Positions 49,000 to 58,955 of a DNA stretch of 64,000 nt are shown one piece after another. The DNA is from a bacterium (lineage in GTDB: Bacteria > Krumholzibacteriota > Krumholzibacteriia > LZORAL124-64-63), in the NCBI GenBank assembly GCA_031441465.1, contig JANOEP010000016.1:1-64000 (forward strand). The letters run 5' to 3'. The stretch's first letter is position 1. Every line of letters starts with the position of its first letter. A program made the translations under genes and the position numbers. Below the pieces are notes generated by a model. That model saw only the letters and a list, made by a program, of their open reading frames with translations. It searched no databases and had not been told where the DNA came from.

Positions 49000-49190
49000 G
49001 ACTTTTTAGAACAGGCTCCTGATAAATCATCGTTTGGGTCTGGGGCGAAGATGGAACATAATTCCCATCACAGCAACGAGAAACATGCATCTTCGACAAG
49101 TAGATTCGTTTGCGGGAGTATCTGCGATCATTCCAATACCGCATGGATAGGCTGAGCAAGTCAGCCGATCCCGGGCCCCAAGGAGGTACC

Positions 49191-50309
49191 ATGAGCAAGT
49201 ACAAGATCGCCTGGTTGCCCGGCGACGGCGTCGGCATCGAGGTCATGGAGTCGACCAGGATCTGCCTCGACGCCCTCAAGTTCGACGCCGCCTATGTGCA
49301 CGGCGACATCGGGTGGGAGTTCTGGTGCAAGGAGGGTGACGCTTTTCCCCGGCGCACCGTCGATCTCCTGGGGAACTGCGACGCGGCCCTGTTCGGCGCC
49401 ATCACCTCCAAGCCCGTGAAGGACGCGGAGCGCGAGCTCGTTCCCGAGCTGCAGGGCAAGGGCTTGGTCTACCGCAGCCCCATCGTCCGCATGCGGCAGT
49501 CGTTCGACCTCTACACCTGCCTGCGGCCCTGCAAGGCCTACCCGGGCAACCCCCTCAACTACGCGGAAGGCATCGATCTGGTGGTCTTCCGGGAGAACAC
49601 GGAAGATCTCTATGCCGGCGTCGAGTTCAGCCCGGTCCCCGACGAACTCGTCGATGTCCTGAGCCGGCTCAGCAAGCCGTTCTCCCATTTCGCCGCGCTG
49701 CCGGGCAGCGACTACGCCATCACCTGCAAGATCAACTCGAAGAAGGGCTGCGAACGGATCATCCGCGCCGCCTTCGAATACGCCAAGAAGTTCGGCTACC
49801 CCAAAGTCACCGTGATCCACAAGGCGAACGTGGTGCGTGCGACCGAAGGCATGTTCCTGGAGATCGGGAAGCGCGTCGCCAAGGACTACCCGGGGATCCA
49901 GATGGACGACGCCAACATCGACGCCATCTGCATGTGGCTCCTCAAGAACCCCAAGAGCTACGGTGTGCTCGTCGCCACCAACATGTTCGGCGACATCGTC
50001 AGCGACCTCGCCGCGCAGATGGTGGGCGGCCTCGGCTTCGGCTGCTCCGGCAACATCGGCGAGAAGCTCGCCGTGTTCGAGCCGAGCCACGGCAGCGCGC
50101 CCAAGTACGCCGGCCAGAACAAGGTGAACCCCATCGCCACCATCCTCGCCGGTAAGATGATGCTGGACTGGCTGGGCGAGACCGACAAGGGCGCCCGGCT
50201 CGAGAAGGCGGTCGCCCGGATCATCGCCGAAGGCGACGTGCGCACCTACGACATGGGCGGCAGCGCCACGACCCTGGAGATGGGCGAGGCGATCGCCAGG
50301 AAGGTGTAG
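49191..50309 (+). CDS. Isocitrate/isopropylmalate (beta-decarboxylating) dehydrogenase family protein
   Basis: LPGDGVGIEV, RENTEDLY, HKANV, NMFGDIVSDL, FEPSHGSAP. Confidence 0.93.
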   Translation: MSKYKIAWLPGDGVGIEVMESTRICLDALKFDAAYVHGDIGWEFWCKEGDAFPRRTVDLLGNCDAALFGAITSKPVKDAERELVPELQGKGLVYRSPIVRMRQSFDLYTCLRPCKAYPGNPLNYAEGIDLVVFRENTEDLYAGVEFSPVPDELVDVLSRLSKPFSHFAALPGSDYAITCKINSKKGCERIIRAAFEYAKKFGYPKVTVIHKANVVRATEGMFLEIGKRVAKDYPGIQMDDANIDAICMWLLKNPKSYGVLVATNMFGDIVSDLAAQMVGGLGFGCSGNIGEKLAVFEPSHGSAPKYAGQNKVNPIATILAGKMMLDWLGETDKGARLEKAVARIIAEGDVRTYDMGGSATTLEMGEAIARKV

Positions 50310-50313
50310 CGCG

Positions 50314-51213
50314 ATGGCCGAGATCATCATCCACGAGGTCGGCCCCCGTGACGGCCTGCAGGTCGAGAAGCAGGTGGTCCCGACCGACAAGAAGCTCGCG
50401 TGGATCCGGTCGCTCGTCGCCGCGGGCCTGGACATCGTCCAGGTGGGCTCGTTCGTGCACCCGGAGAAGGTGCCGCAGATGGCCGACACGGACGCGCTCT
50501 TCCGCGCGCTCGGCGCCGAGCCGAGAGGCGAGACGATCCTCTCGGGCCTCGTGCTCAACGAGAAGGGCCTCGAGCGCGGGCTCGCGTGCGGCGTCGACAT
50601 GTTCTGCCTCGGGGTCTCGGCCTCCGAGACTCACAGCATGAAGAACACCGGCATGGGCTCCGGGGAGGCGCAGCGCCGCATCATCGCCACGGCGGGGGAA
50701 GCGGTAGCGGCCGGCAAGAAAGTCCAGGTTTCGGTGCAGAGCGCCTTCGGTTGCGGCTTCGAGGGTCCGATCCCGGAGGTGCGGGTCCTCGGCATCGTGC
50801 GCGCCTACCTCGAGGCCGGACTCACGAACATCAGTCTCGCCGACACCGCCGGCCACGCGCACCCGGAGCAGGTGCGGCGGTTGTTCGGCGGGATCCTGCG
50901 CCTCGCGCCGGAGATCCGCTGCACGTGCCACTTCCACGACACCTACGGTCTCGGCATGGCCAACATCTACGCCGCCTCGGAGTCGGGGGTCACCAGCTTC
51001 GAGACCTCGTTCGCCGGCCTGGGCGGCTGTCCGTTCACCAAGGTCGCGGCCGGCAACGTGGCCACCGAGGATCTGGTCCACGCCCTCCGGCGCGGCGGCC
51101 TGCGTCCGGAGATCGATCTCGACGGGATCGTCGCCGTGGCCCGCGAGGTCGCGGCGCATTTCGGGCGTGACATGCCGGGCCGGGTCCACAAGACCGGCCC
51201 GCTCCCCTACTAG
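50314..51213 (+). CDS. HMG-CoA lyase family (DRE-TIM) protein
   Basis: EVGPRDGLQ, LADT, HFHDTYG, GLGGCPF, GNVATED. Confidence 0.92.
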   Translation: MAEIIIHEVGPRDGLQVEKQVVPTDKKLAWIRSLVAAGLDIVQVGSFVHPEKVPQMADTDALFRALGAEPRGETILSGLVLNEKGLERGLACGVDMFCLGVSASETHSMKNTGMGSGEAQRRIIATAGEAVAAGKKVQVSVQSAFGCGFEGPIPEVRVLGIVRAYLEAGLTNISLADTAGHAHPEQVRRLFGGILRLAPEIRCTCHFHDTYGLGMANIYAASESGVTSFETSFAGLGGCPFTKVAAGNVATEDLVHALRRGGLRPEIDLDGIVAVAREVAAHFGRDMPGRVHKTGPLPY

Positions 51214-51225
51214 GCAGGTGATCCG

Positions 51226-52431
51226 ATGACCGACCAGAAACGCGTGCTCGACGGCATCAAGGTGCTCGACCTCACGAACGTGCTCTCCGGCCCGTTCGCC
51301 TCGCTCCACCTGGCGCTCCTGGGCGCCGAGGTCATCAAGATCGAGAACCCCAAGGACGGCGATCTGGCGCGCAAGCTGGGAATCGTCCCCGAGTACAACA
51401 AGCAACTGATGGGGACGAGCTTCCTGGCGCAGAACTGCAACAAGAAGTCGGTGACCCTCAACACCAAGTCGCCGGACGGCAAGGAGATCTTCAAGCGGCT
51501 CGTCGAAGACGTCGACGTGGTGATCGAGAACTTCCGCCCCGGCGTCATGGACCGTCTCGGGCTCGGCTACGACGTCCTGCGCGGGATCAACCCGACGCTG
51601 GTCTACTGCGCGATCTCCGGCTTCGGGCAGACCGGCCCGGACGCCGACAAACCGGCCTACGATCAGATCATCCAGGGGCTCTCCGGCGAGATGGCGATCA
51701 ACGGCGACGAGCGGCTGACGCCGCTGCGCGCCGGCTTCCCCGTCTGCGACACCGTGGGCGGCTTGAACGCGGCGTTCGCGGTGATGGCCGCCCTCTTCCA
51801 TCGCCAGCGGACCGGCGAGGGCCGGTTCATCGACGTCGCGCTCCTCGACTCGATCATGCCGCTCATGGGCTGGGTGGCCGCGAACCTCCTGATCGGCGGC
51901 CAGGAGCCGCCGGTCATGGGCAACGACAACTTCACGGCCGCGCCCAGCGGCACCTTCCGGACGCTCGACGGCCACATCAACATCGCCGCCAACAAGCAGG
52001 AACAGTGGGAGGCGGTCTGCGACGTCCTCGAACTCACGGAACTGAAAGCCGATCCGCGCTTCCAGGAGCGCGACACCCGCAAGAAGAACCGCCGGGCCCT
52101 GACGCCGCTCCTCGAGGCGCGCCTCGTCGAGGGGACGACGCAGCACTGGGTCGAGTCCCTGAACGCGCGCGACGTGCCGAGCGGCGACATCCTGAGCCTG
52201 AGGCAGGCCCTGCGCCAGCCCCAGATCGCGCACCGCGGGGTCTTGCAGAAGGTGAACGTGCCGGGCCTGGGCGACATCGAGGTCTTCGGCCTCACCGCCC
52301 TGTTCAACGGCGAGTCGGGCCCGGTCACCACGCCGCCGCCGACGCTCGGGCAGCACAACGCCGAGGTTCTCGGCCGCTTGGGCTTCACCGCGGATCAGCT
52401 CGTCGAACTCAAGCAGAAGGCAGTCATCTGA
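51226..52431 (+). CDS. CaiB/BaiF family III CoA transferase
   Basis: VLDL..SGP, GAEVIKIE, NKKSV, ENFRPG, ISGFGQTGP. Confidence 0.93.
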   Translation: MTDQKRVLDGIKVLDLTNVLSGPFASLHLALLGAEVIKIENPKDGDLARKLGIVPEYNKQLMGTSFLAQNCNKKSVTLNTKSPDGKEIFKRLVEDVDVVIENFRPGVMDRLGLGYDVLRGINPTLVYCAISGFGQTGPDADKPAYDQIIQGLSGEMAINGDERLTPLRAGFPVCDTVGGLNAAFAVMAALFHRQRTGEGRFIDVALLDSIMPLMGWVAANLLIGGQEPPVMGNDNFTAAPSGTFRTLDGHINIAANKQEQWEAVCDVLELTELKADPRFQERDTRKKNRRALTPLLEARLVEGTTQHWVESLNARDVPSGDILSLRQALRQPQIAHRGVLQKVNVPGLGDIEVFGLTALFNGESGPVTTPPPTLGQHNAEVLGRLGFTADQLVELKQKAVI

Positions 52432-52457
52432 AAACCCGGACGTCACGAGGAGTCACG

Positions 52458-53750
52458 ATGGGAATGACAGTCGTCGAGAAGATCCTGGCCAGGGCGGCGG
52501 GCGCCAAAGCCGTCAGAGCCCTGGATATCGTGGAGCCGCGCGTCGATCTCGCCATGTCGCACGAGAACGCGGCCCTGGTCATCAACCAGTTCAACGAGAT
52601 CTATCTGGGCACGGATCGCGAGCCCAGGCCCTGGGATCCCACCCGCATCGCCATCATCTTCGATCACCGGGTGCCGGCCGAGGGGCCCAAGACCGCCACC
52701 AACCAGAAACTCATCCGCGGCTTCGTGGCGCGGCACGGCATCGCCAAGTTCCACGACATCCGCGGCGACCTCGGCGGCATCTGCCACCAGATCCTGCCGG
52801 AGCACGGCTACGTCCGGCCCGGCTTCGTGGTCGTCGGCACCGACAGCCACACGACCAGCCACGGAGCCCTGGGCTCCTTCGCCTTCGGCATCGGCGCCAC
52901 CGAGATGGCCTCGGTCTGGACGCTCGGCGTCGCGCTCAACATCGAGGTGCCGCCGACCATCAGGGTCGTCGTCACCGGCACATTCCAGGAGCACGTTGGG
53001 CCGAAGGATCTGATCCTGCACCTGATCGGCAGGCTCACGGCCCAGGGCGCCAATTTCCGCGTGCTCGAGTTCCACGGCGACGCGATCGCGGCGATGTCGA
53101 CGAGCGGACGTCTCACCATCTGCAACATGAGCGTCGAGGCCGGCGCCACGAGCGGCATCGTGCCCGCCGACGAAGAAACCGAGCGCTACCTGCGCCAGGA
53201 GGCCGGCGTCACCGGACCCGTCGAGCGGATCTTGCCGGACGCCGACGCCGTCTACGAGAAGGTCCTCGAGGTCGACGTATCCCGGCTCGAACCGCAGATC
53301 GCCTGCCCACACACGGTCGACAACGTGAAGCCGGTCGGCGAGGTCACCGGCAAGGCCGTCCAGCAGATCGTGATCGGCAGCTGCACGAACGGCCGCCTAG
53401 ACGACCTCGAGATCGCCGCCGGGATCCTCAAAGGCAAGCAGGTCGCTCAGGGCACGCGCATGCTGGTCTTCCCCGCCTCCGGGCGGATCTACTCCCAGGC
53501 TCTCGAGGCCGGCTACCTGCAGGAATTCATGAGGGCCGGCGCCGTGGTGATGAACTCGGGCTGCGGGCCGTGCCTGGGCATTCACCAGGGGGCGCTCGGG
53601 GACGAGGAAGTGGCGCTCGCCACCACCAACCGCAACTTCAAGGGCCGCATGGGAAACCCGAAATCCGAGGTCTACCTGTGCAGTGCGGCCGTCGCCGCGG
53701 CCAGCGCCATCACCGGCGTCATCACCGATCCGCGCACAGGAGGTCGCTGA
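52458..53750 (+). CDS. LeuC/HacA-like aconitase-family dehydratase large subunit
   Basis: FDH, GICHQ, DSHT, IGSCTNGR, GCGPCLG, NRNFKGRMG. Confidence 0.93.
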   Translation: MGMTVVEKILARAAGAKAVRALDIVEPRVDLAMSHENAALVINQFNEIYLGTDREPRPWDPTRIAIIFDHRVPAEGPKTATNQKLIRGFVARHGIAKFHDIRGDLGGICHQILPEHGYVRPGFVVVGTDSHTTSHGALGSFAFGIGATEMASVWTLGVALNIEVPPTIRVVVTGTFQEHVGPKDLILHLIGRLTAQGANFRVLEFHGDAIAAMSTSGRLTICNMSVEAGATSGIVPADEETERYLRQEAGVTGPVERILPDADAVYEKVLEVDVSRLEPQIACPHTVDNVKPVGEVTGKAVQQIVIGSCTNGRLDDLEIAAGILKGKQVAQGTRMLVFPASGRIYSQALEAGYLQEFMRAGAVVMNSGCGPCLGIHQGALGDEEVALATTNRNFKGRMGNPKSEVYLCSAAVAAASAITGVITDPRTGGR

Positions 53751-53751
53751 C

Positions 53752-54249
53752 ATGGGCAAGGTCGTACTGAAGCTCGGGAAGGACATCAGCACCGACGACA
53801 TCTACCCCGGACGGTTCATGGCCACGGTCCTCCCGACCGAAACGCCGCAGTTCTGTTTCCACGATCGCACGGAGTTCAACGCGCAGCTCAAGGCCAAGGC
53901 GATCCCGGCCGGCAGCGTCATCGTCGCCGACGAGAACTTTGGCTGCGGCTCGAGCCGCGAACAGGCGGTGAGCACGATCCGGGGCCACGAACTCGTCATC
54001 GTCGCGCGGAGCATCGCGCGCATCTTCCTGCAGAACGCCATCAACCTCGGCCTGAACCTGGTCATCTGCCCGACCATCGAGGCGCAGGAGGGGGACGAGC
54101 TCGAACTCGTTTCCGGCGGGGTGCTGAACAAGACCAGCGGCAAGGAATTCGCCACCGAGCCGCTGCCGCCTGCGCGCCAGGCGATCATCGACGCGGGAGG
54201 GCTGATCCCCTACACCCGCAAGAAACTGCTCGAACTGCCGGCTCGGTGA
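53752..54249 (+). CDS. LeuD/HacB-like dehydratase small subunit
   Basis: ISTDDIYPGR, NFGCGSSREQA, ARIFLQNAINLG. Confidence 0.92.
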   Translation: MGKVVLKLGKDISTDDIYPGRFMATVLPTETPQFCFHDRTEFNAQLKAKAIPAGSVIVADENFGCGSSREQAVSTIRGHELVIVARSIARIFLQNAINLGLNLVICPTIEAQEGDELELVSGGVLNKTSGKEFATEPLPPARQAIIDAGGLIPYTRKKLLELPAR

Positions 54250-54258
54250 TGTCAGTCG

Positions 54259-54459
54259 TCAGTCGCGGCGGCCTCGCCCGGAGGTCAGCAGCCACCCGAT
54301 CGCCGCGCCCCAGAGGACCGCGACGACCGGGTTGGCGCTGATCCGTCAGGTCGCGCCGCTGCAGTGCTGCCAGTAGTGCCAGAGATAGCCGAGCGCGCCG
54401 CCGAGGGCCGGGCCCCAGAGGCGGCGCGCCGCCGTGAGGAATTGCGGGCGCGTCGTCAC
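54259..54459 (-). CDS. DUF6132-like small membrane protein with in-frame UGA (candidate selenoprotein, 66 aa)
   Basis: GTG overlaps the upstream TGA; reads ...GYLWHYWQHCSGAT-UGA-RISANPVVAVLWGAAIGWLL; UGA (54346-54348) falls at the second Cys of the CxxGTCPITSNP motif. Confidence 0.72.
54285..54341 (-). promoter_or_regulatory. Putative bacterial SECIS hairpin
   Basis: 13-bp stem CCCGGUCGUCGCG/CGCGGCGAUCGGG (+15 to +51 from UGA, two G-U pairs), G-initiated loop at +28, outer stems GCCA/UGGC and UCAGC/GCUGA. Confidence 0.5.
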
Positions 54460-55547
54460 GGCTGCACGTAGCCCGCGGCGTGGAGCTGCTCCACGTCGGC
54501 GAAGGTGCGCGGCGGCTGCAGGTGCTTTGCCAGGAAGCGGTAGACCCGCAGCCGGATCTCCTGGGCGCCCTTCGTGTCGAGACGGTCGAAGCTGTGGCCG
54601 CCGGGCGCAGCCTCGTAGATCTCGTATTCGAACTGCTTGTCTTCGGCCTTCAGCGCCTGGATCAGGTGCTCGACCTCCAGCACGTTCACGTCCTCGTCCG
54701 TGGTGTTGGACAGCACCAGCAGGGGAGTCTTCAACTTCTGGACGTTCCACACGGGCGAGCGGCGCTTGTACTCGGCGATGTTCTCGCCGACGGTCTGGCC
54801 GATGTGGTAGTCGGCCGAGAAGTCGTCCCGGTACTCCTGGTCCAGGTAGCCCAGGCGCGCGACGATATCGCTGACCGGCACGCCGGCGTAGGCGCAGGCG
54901 TAGTCGTCGGGATGCTCGAAGACGCTCATCAGGCTGATCAGGCCGCCGTGGCTCCAGCCGATCGAGCCCACGCGGCCCGGATCGACGAAGTCGTAGTTCT
55001 CCAGGACGTAGGCGCGGCAGGCGTGGGCGTCCTCGACCTCCAGGCCGCCGTAGTCGATGCTCTCGTACATGCCGCGGCCGTAACCCGTGCTGCCGCGGTA
55101 CTCCGGCGCCACCACCACGTAACCCTGGGCCACCAGCTCGCGCACGATGTGCGTGTGGTAGGTCGTGAAGTCGGCGTGGACGCCGCCGTGCGACAGCACC
55201 AGCAGCGGCGCCTTGCGGCCGGGATCGAGGTCGCGGGGGATGAAGACGTAGGCCCAGAACTTCAGCGGGTTGCCGGCGCCGATGCCCGTGGGGTTCGTCT
55301 CCTTCCACTTCGGCGGTCCGTACAGGCGCACCTTGTCGATGTGCGCGACGTCGCCCACGCGGTCGAACCAGAGGCCGTCGTCGACCTGCTTCTGCAGTTC
55401 GTCGAGGCGGTGCCCGAGATTCTCGATCGCACCGAGCACCTCGTCGAGCTTGGCGCCGACGTCGGCGACGGGGGAGGAGGTGTCCTGGGCGAAAGCGGTC
55501 AGCGGGACCGCGGCGGCGACGAAGCAGGCCAGCAGCAGGCGACGCAT
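54456..55547 (-). CDS. Secreted S9-family alpha/beta-hydrolase peptidase
   Basis: Signal peptide, HGG, YRGSTGYG, GWSHGG nucleophile, D..V, GGHSF. Confidence 0.9.
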   Translation of the reverse strand: MRRLLLACFVAAAVPLTAFAQDTSSPVADVGAKLDEVLGAIENLGHRLDELQKQVDDGLWFDRVGDVAHIDKVRLYGPPKWKETNPTGIGAGNPLKFWAYVFIPRDLDPGRKAPLLVLSHGGVHADFTTYHTHIVRELVAQGYVVVAPEYRGSTGYGRGMYESIDYGGLEVEDAHACRAYVLENYDFVDPGRVGSIGWSHGGLISLMSVFEHPDDYACAYAGVPVSDIVARLGYLDQEYRDDFSADYHIGQTVGENIAEYKRRSPVWNVQKLKTPLLVLSNTTDEDVNVLEVEHLIQALKAEDKQFEYEIYEAAPGGHSFDRLDTKGAQEIRLRVYRFLAKHLQPPRTFADVEQLHAAGYVQP

Positions 55548-55627
55548 GGCTTCTCCTTCCGGATGACGTGCCCGGTGAGCATGGACCAAGGATACCGGCC
55601 GGTCAACCGGCCCGCAGCGGCGAAGGC

Positions 55628-56989
55628 TCAAGGCGCCTCCGCGATCGCCCACAGCAGCGCGGCGACCGCCGCCACGTTCCGCTGCAGGTCCGCGGGATCG
55701 ACCTTGTCCACGGTGTCGGCCGGGCTGTGGTGGACGTCGAAGTAGTGCTCGCCGTGGACGCGGTGCCCGATCAGGGGCACGCCGGCGTCCGCCAGGAACG
55801 AAATGTCCACGCCGCCGCCGCCGGGGGTCACCGCGTCCGCGCCCAACGATGCCAGCGGCGCGGCCAGCGCGGCGAACCGCGCGACCGTGGCGGAGTCGGC
55901 CTGGACCGTGAAGCCGGCCGGGGCGAAGCCGCCCGAGTCGCACTCCAGCGCCGCCTTGTGGCGCGGCAGCTCGTCGGCGTGAGCGCGGGCGTAGCCGCGC
56001 CCCCCCTGCTGGGTCATTTCCTCGTCGGCGTAGAGCACCACCCGCAGGGTGCGGCGCGGCGCGAGGTCCAGGCGTTTCAGCAGGAAGACCGCCTCCATGA
56101 CGATGGCGCAGCCGGCGCCGTTGTCGTGGGCGCCGCTGCCGACGTCCCACGAGTCGAGGTGGGCGCCGGCCAGGACGATCTCGTCCGGCGATTCACGGCC
56201 GGTCAGCTCGGCCACCACGTTGGCGCTGTCCGCGTCGGGCAGCTGCGATGCTCCCATCTCCAGGCGCACGCGCACCGGCGCGTCGCGGCGGGACAGGCGC
56301 GTCAGCAGGGCGGCGTCCTCCACGCTCAACGCGGCGGCGGGGATCCGCGGGATGGTGTCGCCCTTGTCGTAGCGCATGATGCCGGTGTGGGGGGTGCTGA
56401 GGCTGCGGTCGGTGACCGAGCGGATCAGGCAGCCGACCGCGCCGTGGCGGGCGGCGGCGACGGCGCCGCGGCCGCGGTATTGCACGGTCTTGCCGTACCC
56501 CTCCCAGGGCGGGTCGAACAGCACGAGGCGTCCGGCGGCCTCGGCGGCGCGCGCTTCCAACTCTTCGAAATCGCGCACGGCCAGGACCTCGGCCGTGATC
56601 CCGCCGGGCGGCGTGCCCACGCTGCCGCCGAGCCCCAGCATCGTCAGCGGCTTCTCGTAGGGTTCCAGCAGCGTGCAGGTCTCGCGGCCGCGCACCCAGT
56701 GCGGCACCGTCACCGGCTCGGCGCGCACGCCGACCAGACCGCCCGCACGCAGCCGGCGCAGGGCCCACGCGACGGCGCGGCGCTGGCCGTCCGACCCGTT
56801 CAGGCGCGGGCCCGCGGTGTCGCACAGGTCGGTCAGCAGCGCGAAGGCGGAGCTGTCGGCCAGCGCGGCGGCGACGATGCGCGCCATGGTGTCCGGTGCC
56901 GCTCGTGCGGGTGTGGAGTCGCCGAGCATGAAACCTCCCAGCGCGATGCAGATCGCGGCGATGCGGGACGGTGCGGGCGGGTGCGGCAT
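55628..56989 (-). CDS. M28 metallopeptidase (carboxypeptidase Q-like)
   Basis: GPRLNGS, PHTG, GAHLDSWD, GAHDNGAG, ADEE, HHSPADT. Confidence 0.92.
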   Translation of the reverse strand: MPHPPAPSRIAAICIALGGFMLGDSTPARAAPDTMARIVAAALADSSAFALLTDLCDTAGPRLNGSDGQRRAVAWALRRLRAGGLVGVRAEPVTVPHWVRGRETCTLLEPYEKPLTMLGLGGSVGTPPGGITAEVLAVRDFEELEARAAEAAGRLVLFDPPWEGYGKTVQYRGRGAVAAARHGAVGCLIRSVTDRSLSTPHTGIMRYDKGDTIPRIPAAALSVEDAALLTRLSRRDAPVRVRLEMGASQLPDADSANVVAELTGRESPDEIVLAGAHLDSWDVGSGAHDNGAGCAIVMEAVFLLKRLDLAPRRTLRVVLYADEEMTQQGGRGYARAHADELPRHKAALECDSGGFAPAGFTVQADSATVARFAALAAPLASLGADAVTPGGGGVDISFLADAGVPLIGHRVHGEHYFDVHHSPADTVDKVDPADLQRNVAAVAALLWAIAEAP

Positions 56990-57009
56990 GGATCCTCCGG
57001 ATCGTTCCG

Positions 57010-57885
57010 TCAGCTCATGGTGACCATCAGGATGCCGGCGATCGCCAGCGCCGAGGCCGCGAGCTTGCGCCGGGTGAACGGTTCGTGCAGGAAGAACGAG
57101 GCCAGGATCAGCACGTAGATCGTGCTGGTCTGGTTCAGGATCGCGGCGGCGCCGGCCTGGGTGTACTTCATGCCGGCGAGCCAGAACATCAGCGCCAGGT
57201 ACGAGCCCAGGATCGTGGCCGGCAGGCTGAAGCGCCAGGAGGCGTCGGGCCGGAACACGCCCAGGTAACGCCGGCGCTGCGGCGAAATCACGGCCATCGG
57301 CACCATCACGGCCAGGGCGCCGAGCTGCCGCACGGCCGTGGACCACAGCACGGGCTGACGTTCCAGCACCGGCTTGGCGATGACGACGCCCAGGGCGACG
57401 GCCGCCATGGCGGTCATGCCCATCAGCGAGCCCTTGAGCAGCGCCCGCGGCGGCAAGCCCGGCGGGGTGGGGTGGCCCGAGGCGACCAGCACCGCGGCGA
57501 TGACCGTCACCATGCCCGCCAGCTGCCACCCGTTCAGGCGCTCGCCGATCAGCAGGAACGCGAACAGCACCACCAGCGGCGAGTAGAGGCAGTCGACGAT
57601 GGCGGTGACGCCCGCCCCGACGATGTTCAGGCAGCGGTGGAAGAGGGTGTCGGCCACTGCGATGGCGATGACGCCGCTGGCCATCAGGATCAGCACGTCC
57701 CGCACCGGCGCCTCGCGCACCAGTCCCTGGCCCGACGCCAGCACCGTGACCACCAGCAGCACGCTGCTGATCCCCACCCGGAACAGGTTCAGCGCGAACG
57801 GCGAGACGGTCTCGCCCGAACGCTTCAGCAGGATGACCGCGACCGCCCAGATCACGGCGCAGAGCAGGGCGTAGAACTCTCCCAA
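57010..57885 (-). CDS. DMT/EamA-family transporter
   Basis: About 10 TM helices in two EamA repeats; TTG start. Confidence 0.88.
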   Translation of the reverse strand: MGEFYALLCAVIWAVAVILLKRSGETVSPFALNLFRVGISSVLLVVTVLASGQGLVREAPVRDVLILMASGVIAIAVADTLFHRCLNIVGAGVTAIVDCLYSPLVVLFAFLLIGERLNGWQLAGMVTVIAAVLVASGHPTPPGLPPRALLKGSLMGMTAMAAVALGVVIAKPVLERQPVLWSTAVRQLGALAVMVPMAVISPQRRRYLGVFRPDASWRFSLPATILGSYLALMFWLAGMKYTQAGAAAILNQTSTIYVLILASFFLHEPFTRRKLAASALAIAGILMVTMS

Positions 57886-57989
57886 GGCGATCTCCCGATC
57901 TGCGGCGCGGTGAATGGAGGTTGATCGGCGGTGCCGGACGTGGAATCATCGCACTGCTGCCGTCCCTTCCGCAAGCAGGGGGTTGGATC

Positions 57990-58955
57990 ATGTATGTCGG
58001 TTATGCGGCGCCGCTGCGCCGGGCCTGGGCCCGCGCCCGCGCCCTGCTCCTCACGGGCTCGAGCCCCGAGACGTGGTTCGTGCTGGGATTCACGGCCTGG
58101 CTGGCCCGCCTGTGGGACAACGCCGGCCTGGGCGGCTCTTGGGATCGCGACTTCGTCAATTTCAAGGACCGCGACTGGCGCGTGTCGAGCCTGGACGACC
58201 TCCGCCACCTCGACCTCTTCGGCCACGAGCTCGGCGGGCTCGGGGTGGGGATCCTGGCCGGGCTCGGCGTGTTCGCGCTGCTGCTGGCGGTGCTGCTGAC
58301 CTGGCTCAGCTCCCGCGGCGAGTTCTGCTTCCTGGACAACGTCGTCCACCGGCGCGCCCGCGTGAGCGAGCCGTGGCGGCGGTACGCCCGCCAGGGCGAT
58401 TCGCTCTTCCTGTGGCGACTGGCCTTCCAGATCGTGGCCGGCGCCTGCGCGCTGGCCCTGATCCTGCCGGGCCTGCTGCTGGTGATCGGCGCGATCGCCA
58501 CCGAGAGCCTGCGCGGCCTCGGCGTCGCGGGCGCGGTCGTGCTGGGGATGCTGGGCGTCGTGCTGGCGATCGCGGCCTCCCTGGTCTCGTTCTGGACCGA
58601 CCAGTTCGTCGTGCCCGTGATGTACCGCGACGGCTCCGGCGTGCTGGCGGCCTGGCGCCGCACCCTGCCCCTGGTGCGCGAGCACATCGACCAGGCCGTC
58701 CTGTTCGCCCTGTTCTGGCTGCTGTTGGCCATGGTTGTCGGCGCCGCGATCGCCGCGCTGGGTCTGGTGACCTGCTGCGTCGGGTGGCTCGTGCTGGCGA
58801 TCCCGTACCTCGGCACCGTGATCCTGCTGCCGGTCTACGTCACGGCCCGCGCGCTGGGCCCCGAGTTCCTGGCCCAGTACGGCGAGGAGTGGCGCTTGTG
58901 GCCGTCCGACGGACCGCCGCCGCCCGCCGGCGAAGACCCGACTTCCACCGCATAA
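57990..58955 (+). CDS. Hypothetical multi-pass membrane protein
   Basis: Several TM helices; WLSSRGEF..LDNV, DQFVVPVMY, TCC..IPYLG. Confidence 0.75.
   Translation: MYVGYAAPLRRAWARARALLLTGSSPETWFVLGFTAWLARLWDNAGLGGSWDRDFVNFKDRDWRVSSLDDLRHLDLFGHELGGLGVGILAGLGVFALLLAVLLTWLSSRGEFCFLDNVVHRRARVSEPWRRYARQGDSLFLWRLAFQIVAGACALALILPGLLLVIGAIATESLRGLGVAGAVVLGMLGVVLAIAASLVSFWTDQFVVPVMYRDGSGVLAAWRRTLPLVREHIDQAVLFALFWLLLAMVVGAAIAALGLVTCCVGWLVLAIPYLGTVILLPVYVTARALGPEFLAQYGEEWRLWPSDGPPPPAGEDPTSTA

Follow-up and report, generated by a model that had tools for sequence, protein, structure and literature searches.

A two-helix membrane protein of a Krumholzibacteriota bacterium, related to DUF6132 and most likely encoded by a mis-annotated selenoprotein gene

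The window analysed in this study is a stretch of 64,000 nucleotides (positions 1 to 64,000 of contig JANOEP010000016.1, assembly GCA_031441465.1) from a bacterium of the phylum Krumholzibacteriota, and the gene in question lies on its minus strand at 54459..54259, where a short reading frame is interrupted by a single in-frame TGA. Judging from comparative sequence analysis, this is most likely a genuine selenoprotein gene that has been mis-annotated: with a probability which we put at roughly 0.85, the frame would constitute one gene for a two-helix membrane protein in which UGA is decoded as selenocysteine (Sec) at position 38, where it would form a redox or chalcogen-relay couple with Cys33. 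An original prediction, made from the letters of the window, had proposed that this UGA is read as Sec within a CxxxxU loop, and the proposal is supported by the conservation of the TGA among relatives, by the coding signature of the sequence that follows it, by Cys at the same column in homologues and by the Sec machinery of the genome.

The read-through open reading frame (ORF; 54259..54459, minus strand) has 66 sense codons with one internal TGA, followed by a terminal TGA at 54261..54259, and its translation reads VTTRPQFLTAARRLWGPALGGALGYLWHYWQHCSGAT-U-RISANPVVAVLWGAAIGWLLTSGRGRRD, that is, a first transmembrane helix (TM1), HYWQHCSGAT, the putative Sec, RISANP and a second transmembrane helix (TM2). 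The TGA proposed to encode Sec is codon 38 (54346..54348, minus strand), and the codon of Cys33, its partner in the C-x4-U loop, is TGC (54361..54363, minus strand). The start codon, GTG (54457..54459, minus strand), overlaps the TGA stop (54458..54456) of an upstream hydrolase ORF in the form GTGA. Retranslation gives the same letters as those on which the original prediction was based, with the same coupling through GTGA to a gene of the S9 type and the same order of helices, loop and TGA. Translation, orthologue alignments, profile-profile comparison by HHalign and the coding signature together characterise this ORF as a two-helix membrane protein and a divergent relative of DUF6132.

The TGA is strongly conserved among relatives. 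When 61 related genomes were searched in six frames with the read-through protein, 26 gave matches, and each of the 26 strong rows (37–98% identity) contains exactly one in-frame TGA; the three further rows that lack it are one fragment of a frameshifted second gene copy and two matches with E values of about 0.006–0.008. Once the 26 loci are aligned, the TGA occupies a single column in every one of them, a Cys stands five residues before it in 25 of the 26 (the exception being a genome designated G015), and no gaps occur between the TGA and a conserved S-G-G that follows TM2. A profile was then built from an alignment of 23 rows (A1), which omits the frameshifted copy (L048) as well as two rows of the same genus that are nearly identical; the profile matched 58 of the 208 genomes of the phylum, with 59 matches distributed over 20 genera, all 59 carrying one TGA. 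These 58 genomes all belong to one taxonomic family, where they comprise the window's own genome and 57 of the 90 others, and no Cys form was found among the profile matches in the 208 genomes. The codon is therefore not unique to this assembly, and uniqueness is what would have deprived the original prediction of its ground: the TGA recurs in 59/59 matches from 58/208 genomes, as well as in 26/26 matches to an exact pattern searched for in metagenomes (see below). In addition, 21 of the 25 intact loci end in TGA, which means that the codon has not been reassigned genome-wide.

Two deviating loci deserve to be described separately. In one genus (G015, locus L041 at G015:C145:36981-37133; protein P0250) the conserved Cys is replaced by Ser and a Cys is found four residues after the Sec position (S-R-G-S-T-U-G-I-A-C), so that the resolving Cys may have moved to the other side of Sec. 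One same-genus genome contains a second copy of the gene (L048, G001:C7:9004-9156, and L050) that has kept the TGA and acquired a frameshift early in TM2; this second copy may reflect strain mixture or contamination of the assembly, or may be a decaying duplicate.

The sequence after the TGA evolves as protein-coding sequence. For this analysis, the 75 nt following the TGA were taken from a gap-free alignment of 34 distinct loci (A2), in which the three codon positions have entropies of 0.89, 0.53 and 1.03, synonymous changes make up 35% of pairwise codon differences in frame versus 15% and 7% in the other frames, and no stops occur in frame (45 occur in one of the other frames and none in the third). 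Taken together, entropy, synonymous share and stop counts indicate that this region is translated.

Homologues with Cys at the position of the TGA are abundant outside the window's family. A HMMER scan of 1.84 billion representative proteins with the A1 profile returned 951 matches at E ≤ 1e-3 and 28 at E ≤ 1e-10. The 38 of those that were read are proteins of 58–99 aa with two helices and a loop of the form G-C-x-x-G-x-C-[PA]-I-T-S-N-P, all but one having C-x4-C, and their Cys aligns exactly to the TGA of the window. All 12 of the top profile matches that were tested passed the Pfam cut-off for DUF6132 (PF19628), and the tested Cys homologues had no match to an NCBIfam model. Alignment of A1 with a set of 35 Cys forms (A3) using HHalign gave a probability of 99.6% and an E value of 3.3e-24 over 65 columns that extend across the TGA, with U placed on the second Cys. 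These results agree with what had been proposed, namely that DUF6132 proteins carry CxxGTCPITSNP, which fits the retrieved family members, and that the TGA sits at the second Cys of this motif; nor does homology cease after the TGA, where U-x-[ILVM]-[TSA]-x-[NS]-P and TM2 follow without gaps. If the loop motif is taken from the retrieved members as C-x4-C-x-[ILV]-[TS]-x-N-P, which is not a published definition, the loop of the window's family conforms to it with U in place of the second Cys. A six-frame scan of the 208 genomes with the Pfam DUF6132 model gave no matches, and since its controls were equally silent the scan is uninformative.

The Cys forms of PF19628 and the window's family share a length of 55–100 aa, two glycine-rich helices and two redox-type loop residues four apart, followed by [ILV]-[TS]-x-N-P. 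They differ in that the window's family has the putative Sec instead of the second Cys, in its lineage-specific S-G-G tail, which bears a conserved RNA mini-hairpin, and in its neighbours, which are peptidases, or a protein with two CxxC motifs together with a multihaem cytochrome, whereas the Cys forms are found beside thioredoxin and rhodanese.

The genome to which the window belongs (3.49 Mb in 74 contigs, 96.8% complete) encodes the components needed for Sec insertion, the lack of which would have spoken against the prediction: SelA (437.3 bits), SelB (359 bits), SelD (342.7 bits) and tRNA-Sec (67.8 bits) all score above their curated cut-offs. The SelD gene of this genome (G000:C25:35277-36200, L011) itself has an in-frame TGA (FAKSAG-U-AAKLGP), making it a second selenoprotein gene in the genome, and is accompanied by a hairpin with the loop CGAU 31 nt after the UGA. 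Across the phylum, SelA was found in 200 of 208 genomes and in 125 of the 125 genomes of good quality, so that Sec use extends through the whole lineage.

It had also been expected that gene callers would truncate or miss such a gene, and public protein sets do indeed hold halves of it that end or start at the TGA. When called proteins were searched by a word index with the single protein, the sole match was a 37-residue piece that runs up to the TGA. A second search of public proteins, performed with the A1 profile, gave 103 matches, which besides Cys forms include calls from TGA forms: ten pieces of 31–44 aa stop directly before the TGA (P0002, P0225, P0229, P0232, P0238, P0241, P0244, P0249, P0250 and P0252), three begin at a Met just past it (P0240, P0248 and P0253), and one call of 68 aa (P0153) has W at the Sec column, which we take to come from gene calling under a code in which TGA is Trp. 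No full-length record bearing Sec was present among these profile matches. As public sets hold only halves, the residue that would be the redox-active one is invisible to users of the annotation.

TGA forms are not restricted to the window's family. The original prediction had called for a search for alternation of Cys and TGA at this column, and it is found, with Cys in homologues elsewhere and TGA both in the window's family and in lineages known from metagenomes. A metagenome collection was scanned for the exact pattern C-x4-TGA-x-ITSNP-x6-GA-xx-G, yielding 26 loci, all 26 of which are read-through members of the family. Twelve resemble the window's family in having an SGGE tail and the mini-hairpin, one of them at about 50% G+C (44% over the 78 nt from the TGA). 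Seven (L181, L182, L184, L186, L195, L201 and L203), at 40–44% G+C, are of the type YYYFIGCAGGG-U-AITSNPWGS, which otherwise looks like a canonical DUF6132, and at 17 nt past the UGA they have a hairpin of 9 bp with the loop GUG, which passes a strict scanner for bacterial Sec insertion elements in 5 of the 7 loci. Of the remainder, three read GYLGRCSGSG-U-IITSNPW, three KC-x-GG-x-U-x-ITSNPWSGAIFGA and one RCIGSG-U-KITCNP. Of the 25 metagenome loci whose terminal stop was read, 21 use TGA. Because TGA forms of these other types exist, alternation of Sec and Cys is not confined to the window's family, and the presence of putative Sec forms in several unrelated lineages suggests, at the level of sequence, that the switch between Cys and Sec may have occurred more than once.

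For the RNA hairpin which the model of bacterial Sec insertion places after the UGA (bSECIS), the evidence is mixed, and it is here that the case is least strong. The region after the TGA of the window is strongly structured, and a clean canonical bSECIS is not recognisable in this lineage. On the minus strand, the segment 54270-54350 has a minimum free energy (MFE) of -53.7 kcal/mol with z = -5.15, and none of 200 dinucleotide shuffles was as stable. The long hairpin which had been noticed earlier is thus present, though it begins at the first base after the TGA and not 5 nt downstream as had been stated; it spans 54279..54345 (minus strand), has its apical region about 28–34 nt past the UGA, is identical in sequence in same-genus loci and represents the candidate SECIS in the genus that we designate g1. 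Over the 60 nt after the UGA, the median z of the 34 Sec forms is -1.94, with half of them below -2 and genus g1 at -5.0 to -6.2. In 74 Cys forms the equivalent stretch of coding sequence gives a median z of -0.55, and 9% of them lie below -2 (17 Cys forms of high G+C: -0.26), and the two groups differ with a Mann-Whitney p of 2.6e-7, for which it should be noted that kin are not independent. A structure drawn by hand, with a helix at A2 columns 39-47/52-60 and a loop 33–36 nt after the UGA, has 79.9% of cells paired compared with 72.4% in shuffles (0/500 reach that value) and a covariation score of 0.286, slid controls giving at most 0.142.

A second element is conserved further downstream. 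RNAalifold recovers a mini-hairpin with a stem of 5–6 bp and the loop C-GGN-G at 54271..54285 (minus strand; A2 columns 76-90), which lies some 65 nt beyond the UGA, over the codons x-S-G-G/R-x. It has 97% of cells paired; pair 76/90 occurs as CG 16, GC 8, AU 5, UG 2 and GU 1 times, while pair 77/89 occurs as UA 16, CG 11 and UG 7 times and is broken in none. The element (CUCUCC-GGN-GGAGAG) is near-invariant at the nucleotide level, its Ser codon being nearly always TCC and that of the second Gly most often GGA, and the S-G-G tail is confined to the Sec forms of the window's lineage. In genus g1 the 5' arm of the mini-hairpin is also part of the long hairpin, which means that the two structures compete. 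Searches of Rfam gave only sub-threshold matches to miRNA-like hairpins.

The bSECIS model given in a review of May 2026 (PMC13188914, legend of Fig. 2) specifies a loop of 3–9 nt with G in the opening two positions and a stem of 4–16 bp located 16–37 nt after the UGA, with an MFE of at most -7.5 kcal/mol. Compared with this consensus, of the E. coli fdhF type, the structure in the window is similar in starting right after the UGA and in having its apical region at about 28–34 nt, within the range of 16–37 nt. It differs in its UCU loop, which is devoid of the G required in the opening two positions, and in that the only conserved loop of the G-G-N type in the lineage lies about 65 nt downstream, where C-G-G-N-G fits the printed apical-loop pattern at a position outside the range of the model. 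Decoding in the window's lineage may proceed via an unusual two-hairpin arrangement, with the conserved G-G-N loop located outside 16–37 nt.

As to what the protein might do, its product would be a 66-residue inner-membrane protein consisting of two glycine-rich helices joined by the loop C33-S-G-A-T-U38-R-I-S-A-N-P, with the internal UGA translated as selenocysteine by the SelA/SelB/SelD/tRNA-Sec of the genome and aided by the RNA structure directly after the UGA. AlphaFold2, run on A1, places helices at residues 5-32 and 44-60 and the loop at 33-43. Both termini are rich in Arg and Lys, and according to the positive-inside rule, by which the orientation of membrane proteins is generally explained, the loop would lie on the outer face of the membrane. 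The canonical DUF6132 loop is C-x4-C, and with Sec substituting for its second Cys, Cys33 and Sec38 would make up a selenenylsulfide/selenol-thiol couple at the membrane surface. Anchored in the membrane, this couple might act as a redox site or as a relay for sulfur/selenium (chalcogen) together with proteins of the thioredoxin-fold and rhodanese types, a function that we infer because thioredoxins and rhodaneses are neighbours of Cys forms and fusions of Cys forms with thioredoxin exist. Among the Cys forms, tblastn confirmed 594 loci in named genomes, whose groups include Bacteroidota, Ignavibacteriota, Spirochaetota, Myxococcota, KSB1, Fibrobacterota and Clostridia. Full flanks are available for 52 Cys-form loci, and the four nearest ORFs were scanned in 37 of these; 25 of the 37 have at least one neighbour handling thiols or sulfur: thioredoxin-fold proteins at 12 loci, rhodanese at 9, DUF302 at 7, AhpC/redoxin at 4, TauE at 3 and OsmC at 2, as well as fusions of the CoA-disulfide-reductase type with rhodanese, TusA or DsrE and one DsbD_TM. 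Lipoprotein signal peptides are present on some of the neighbouring thioredoxins, and the neighbouring rhodaneses have an N-terminal membrane anchor. The ESM Atlas contains clusters of DUF6132-thioredoxin fusions with 80 and 56 members.

The main functional rival to such a relay accepts the selenoprotein and sees in the C-x4-U loop a site for soft metals or metalloids such as Hg, As or Cu, the protein being a small transporter or sensor. We consider this unlikely, although it is the alternative with the most in its favour. In one genus (genome G010, L080:945-3563) the Sec gene follows a fusion of an ArsC-like protein (LMWPc) with a methyltransferase and a carrier of the SBF/ACR3 type, a context of the arsenic type; an LMWPc gene adjoins one Cys form from Spirochaetes; and Table 1 of PMC13188914 includes membrane selenoproteins that handle metals, e.g., a putative mercuric transport protein and a Cu/Zn efflux transporter. 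Metal-related neighbours are nevertheless rare, being found at 1 of 20 Sec-form and 1 of 37 Cys-form loci, compared with thiol- or sulfur-handling neighbours at the 25 of 37 Cys-form loci mentioned above and the existing thioredoxin fusions.

A different possibility is that the UGA is read through without Sec, as Trp or Cys, by a near-cognate tRNA or owing to its context, resulting in a mature C-x4-W or C-x4-C protein. The W of P0153 at the Sec column would fit this, as would the scan for canonical bSECIS elements, which is passed by 9/34 Sec forms and by 20% of shuffles. Sec systems are, moreover, able to insert Cys when selenium is scarce. This explanation is nonetheless improbable, given that the column is Cys in the 38 homologues read, all but one of them C-x4-C, which is the classic pairing of Sec and Cys; that SelA is present in 200/208 genomes of the phylum and four Sec components in this one; that the RNA structure of Sec forms after the UGA exceeds that of Cys forms; and that Sec forms of low G+C have a hairpin conforming to the printed bSECIS rules.

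Less probable still is that the TGA is a genuine stop, the product being a 37-residue single-helix peptide and the downstream sequence an untranslated RNA element or the decaying remnant of a Cys form. Gene callers do annotate pieces of this kind (31–44 aa), the region after the TGA is strongly RNA-structured in genus g1, and a canonical bSECIS is not clearly recognisable. The 25 codons after the TGA, however, evolve as coding sequence, with the lowest entropy at position 2, a synonymous share of 35% against 15%/7% and 0 stops, and align gap-free to TM2 of the Cys forms, while a remnant would not hold the TGA at one column in 59/59 loci from 20 genera and, in addition, in unrelated lineages of low G+C. 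Finally, an assembly error or nonsense mutation is ruled out by the conservation of the TGA across relatives, and global reassignment of TGA (codes 4 or 25) by the use of TGA as the stop of both this gene and the upstream ORF and as the terminal stop of 21/25 genome and 21/25 metagenome loci.

Several observations weigh against our interpretation of the gene or limit the evidence for it. With regard to family membership, the window protein, with C substituted for U, reaches 16.8 bits (E 0.0054) against PF19628, whose cut-off is 23.2 bits, and only 15 of 23 orthologues match this model at E ≤ 0.1, the best at 6.1e-5. By Pfam's rule the window protein is therefore a divergent relative of DUF6132 and not a member, and the comparison with the DUF6132 model that the original prediction had suggested came out divided, the single protein falling short of the cut-off and the profile-profile alignment linking it at 99.6% to the Cys forms. 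The A1 profile found no match in 33 of the 90 other genomes of the family, and both the conservation counts and the contrast in z-scores come from related genomes which are not independent. As SelA is nearly universal in the phylum, co-occurrence of the gene with Sec use offers no contrast and says nothing. With regard to the RNA, RNAalifold found no consensus helix at the canonical SECIS position in the 34 loci or in two subgroups of them (4 pairs in one and none in the other), and our own strict scanner for the printed bSECIS constraints, which allows no bulges, passes 9/34 Sec forms compared with 336/1700 shuffles (20%), i.e., no enrichment, while the hairpin of the window fails the strict rule on account of its UCU apical loop. 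With a pLDDT of 63.6, the AlphaFold2 model is of low confidence. The functional inference is drawn from Cys forms of other phyla, whose neighbour counts (25/37) have no background control and include several loci, from Paludibacter, that are close kin, and no thioredoxin or rhodanese neighbour was found at E ≤ 1e-8 in 20 loci of the window's own family; no particular partner protein is supported for this lineage.

Evidence from RNA libraries lends weak support. Contigs assembled from two metatranscriptome runs within a single study reach across the entire gene in a relative that is about 92% identical (X15 record 1, 53900-54873, with 73 differences, and X16 record 15, 54252-54591, with 27 differences), and at the start position they have A on the minus strand (a C>T change at 54459 when read on the plus strand). 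The differences listed include none at 54346..54348, but 79 differences are not displayed, and RNA-library contigs may derive from DNA and reveal neither strand nor translation.

The surroundings of the gene differ between genera. In the window, the upstream ORF (54456..56150, minus strand) contains an S9/alpha-beta hydrolase domain (Pfam Peptidase_S9, E 4e-33, residues 339-545), in agreement with its earlier designation as an S9 peptidase, and its true start is probably internal; a 376-aa S9 gene precedes the Sec gene in G015 too. Two same-genus loci (L024 and L028) have ATG at the position of the start codon, and outside genus g1 most Sec genes have their own ATG and a ribosome-binding site of the GGAG type, so that coupling to the S9 gene is a local arrangement. 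A functional link between the Sec gene and the S9 peptidase was considered and found unsupported, as tight coupling is limited to genus g1 and the recurrence of S9, M28 and EamA nearby in some genera looks like local synteny. The genes for EamA, M28 peptidase and S9 hydrolase lie upstream of the Sec gene in the window and in some other genera. In the window (54456-57991, minus strand), the 564-codon 'S9' ORF and a 787-codon ORF overlap in different frames, and the latter has an M28 peptidase domain in its C-terminal part and an EamA gene within its 5' part, from which it follows that the real genes are shorter than the mechanical ORFs and that their order is EamA, M28, S9 hydrolase and Sec gene. 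On the opposite strand, a gene for a LeuD-like aconitase small subunit (53683..54249, plus strand) converges on the Sec gene and ends 9 nt from its stop, outside the feature itself. It closes a plus-strand cluster (49110-54249) encoding an isocitrate/isopropylmalate dehydrogenase, an HMGL-like enzyme, a family III CoA-transferase and aconitase-type large and small subunits, which looks like an organic-acid pathway of the citramalate or leucine type.

In seven genera of the window's family, the Sec gene is followed by an unassigned, conserved protein of 131–151 aa with two CxxC motifs and/or a second unassigned protein, of about 130 aa, that begins with C-x-H-L-E-x-Y-G, and then by a multihaem cytochrome (PF11783 + PF14522). 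The former (CPHC ... CPVC ... TNFFGA), for which Pfam gave only sub-threshold zinc-ribbon matches, was observed directly downstream of the Sec gene at L086:3517-3948, L088:3566-4009, L092:3541-3993, L091:4179-4571 and L096:4258-4650. The latter (C-x-H-L-E-x-Y-G ... F-R-G), two examples of which were compared with Pfam and had no match, was observed on the opposite strand between the Sec gene and the multihaem cytochrome at L085:4248-4628, L089:3582-4001, L091:4605-5024, L096:4708-5106 and L088:3155-3556.

With regard to selenoproteins already described, Table 1 of PMC13188914 lists 119 families and subfamilies of prokaryotic selenoproteins, and this table includes no DUF6132/PF19628, no C-x4-U motif and no small two-helix membrane protein. 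The window protein matches no model of NCBIfam release 20 at E ≤ 1. In the paper on BSepDB (PMC13326102), one supplement contains neither DUF6132/PF19628 nor CxxxxU, and the main text neither 'DUF' nor 'membrane'; the outline of Haft and Gwadz 2022 concerns other families. Full-text searches of the literature retrieved no relevant paper mentioning DUF6132 and nothing relevant on the C-x4-U motif. A DUF6132 Sec/Cys family, as proposed here from sequence, would accordingly appear to be missing from current inventories, with the proviso that Deng et al. 2026 (Cell Rep 45:116760), who according to a passage in PMC13188914 put forward numerous predicted selenoproteins from groundwater genomes, 63 of them from a single Methylomirabilota genome, lies outside this coverage and might list it.

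The putative selenoprotein resembles the redox selenoproteins catalogued in that same Table 1 (thioredoxin-like, AhpD-like and SelW-like) in having one Sec near a Cys, Cys homologues and decoding by SelA/SelB/tRNA-Sec, and differs from the CxxU/UxxC proteins catalogued there in its C-x4-U spacing and in being a bare two-helix membrane hairpin with no thioredoxin fold. With the membrane selenoproteins listed in the table (mercuric transport PF02411, YeeE/YedE PF04143 and the SaoP permease) it would share a Sec in or beside membrane helices and links to sulfur or soft metals; it is unrelated to them in sequence, with DUF6132 as its only Pfam relation, and is much smaller, having two helices. The decoding mechanism would be ordinary, and what is unusual is the type of protein, a bare membrane hairpin with C-x4-U, and the geometry of its SECIS. 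A more far-reaching interpretation, to which we give somewhat less than even odds, is that DUF6132 constitutes a widespread, uncatalogued Sec/Cys family with members among the smallest bacterial membrane selenoproteins, acting as a selenenylsulfide relay for thioredoxin-fold or rhodanese partners and decoded through two hairpins in the window's lineage.

In conclusion, selenoprotein genes are systematically mis-annotated, and the gene described here would be a clear case. If Sec and Cys alternate in DUF6132 as proposed, this would mark the second loop Cys as the functional residue in a family to which no function has been assigned, and would add a membrane-embedded C-x4-U family to an inventory dominated by soluble proteins with the thioredoxin fold. 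The natural SECIS variants (a loop at 17 nt, one at about 32 nt and the conserved loop at about 65 nt) could be used to test the limits of the bacterial SECIS model, and the pairing of Sec with Cys, along with the thioredoxin and rhodanese neighbours and the fusions, provides a concrete, testable hypothesis for the DUF6132 family as a whole.

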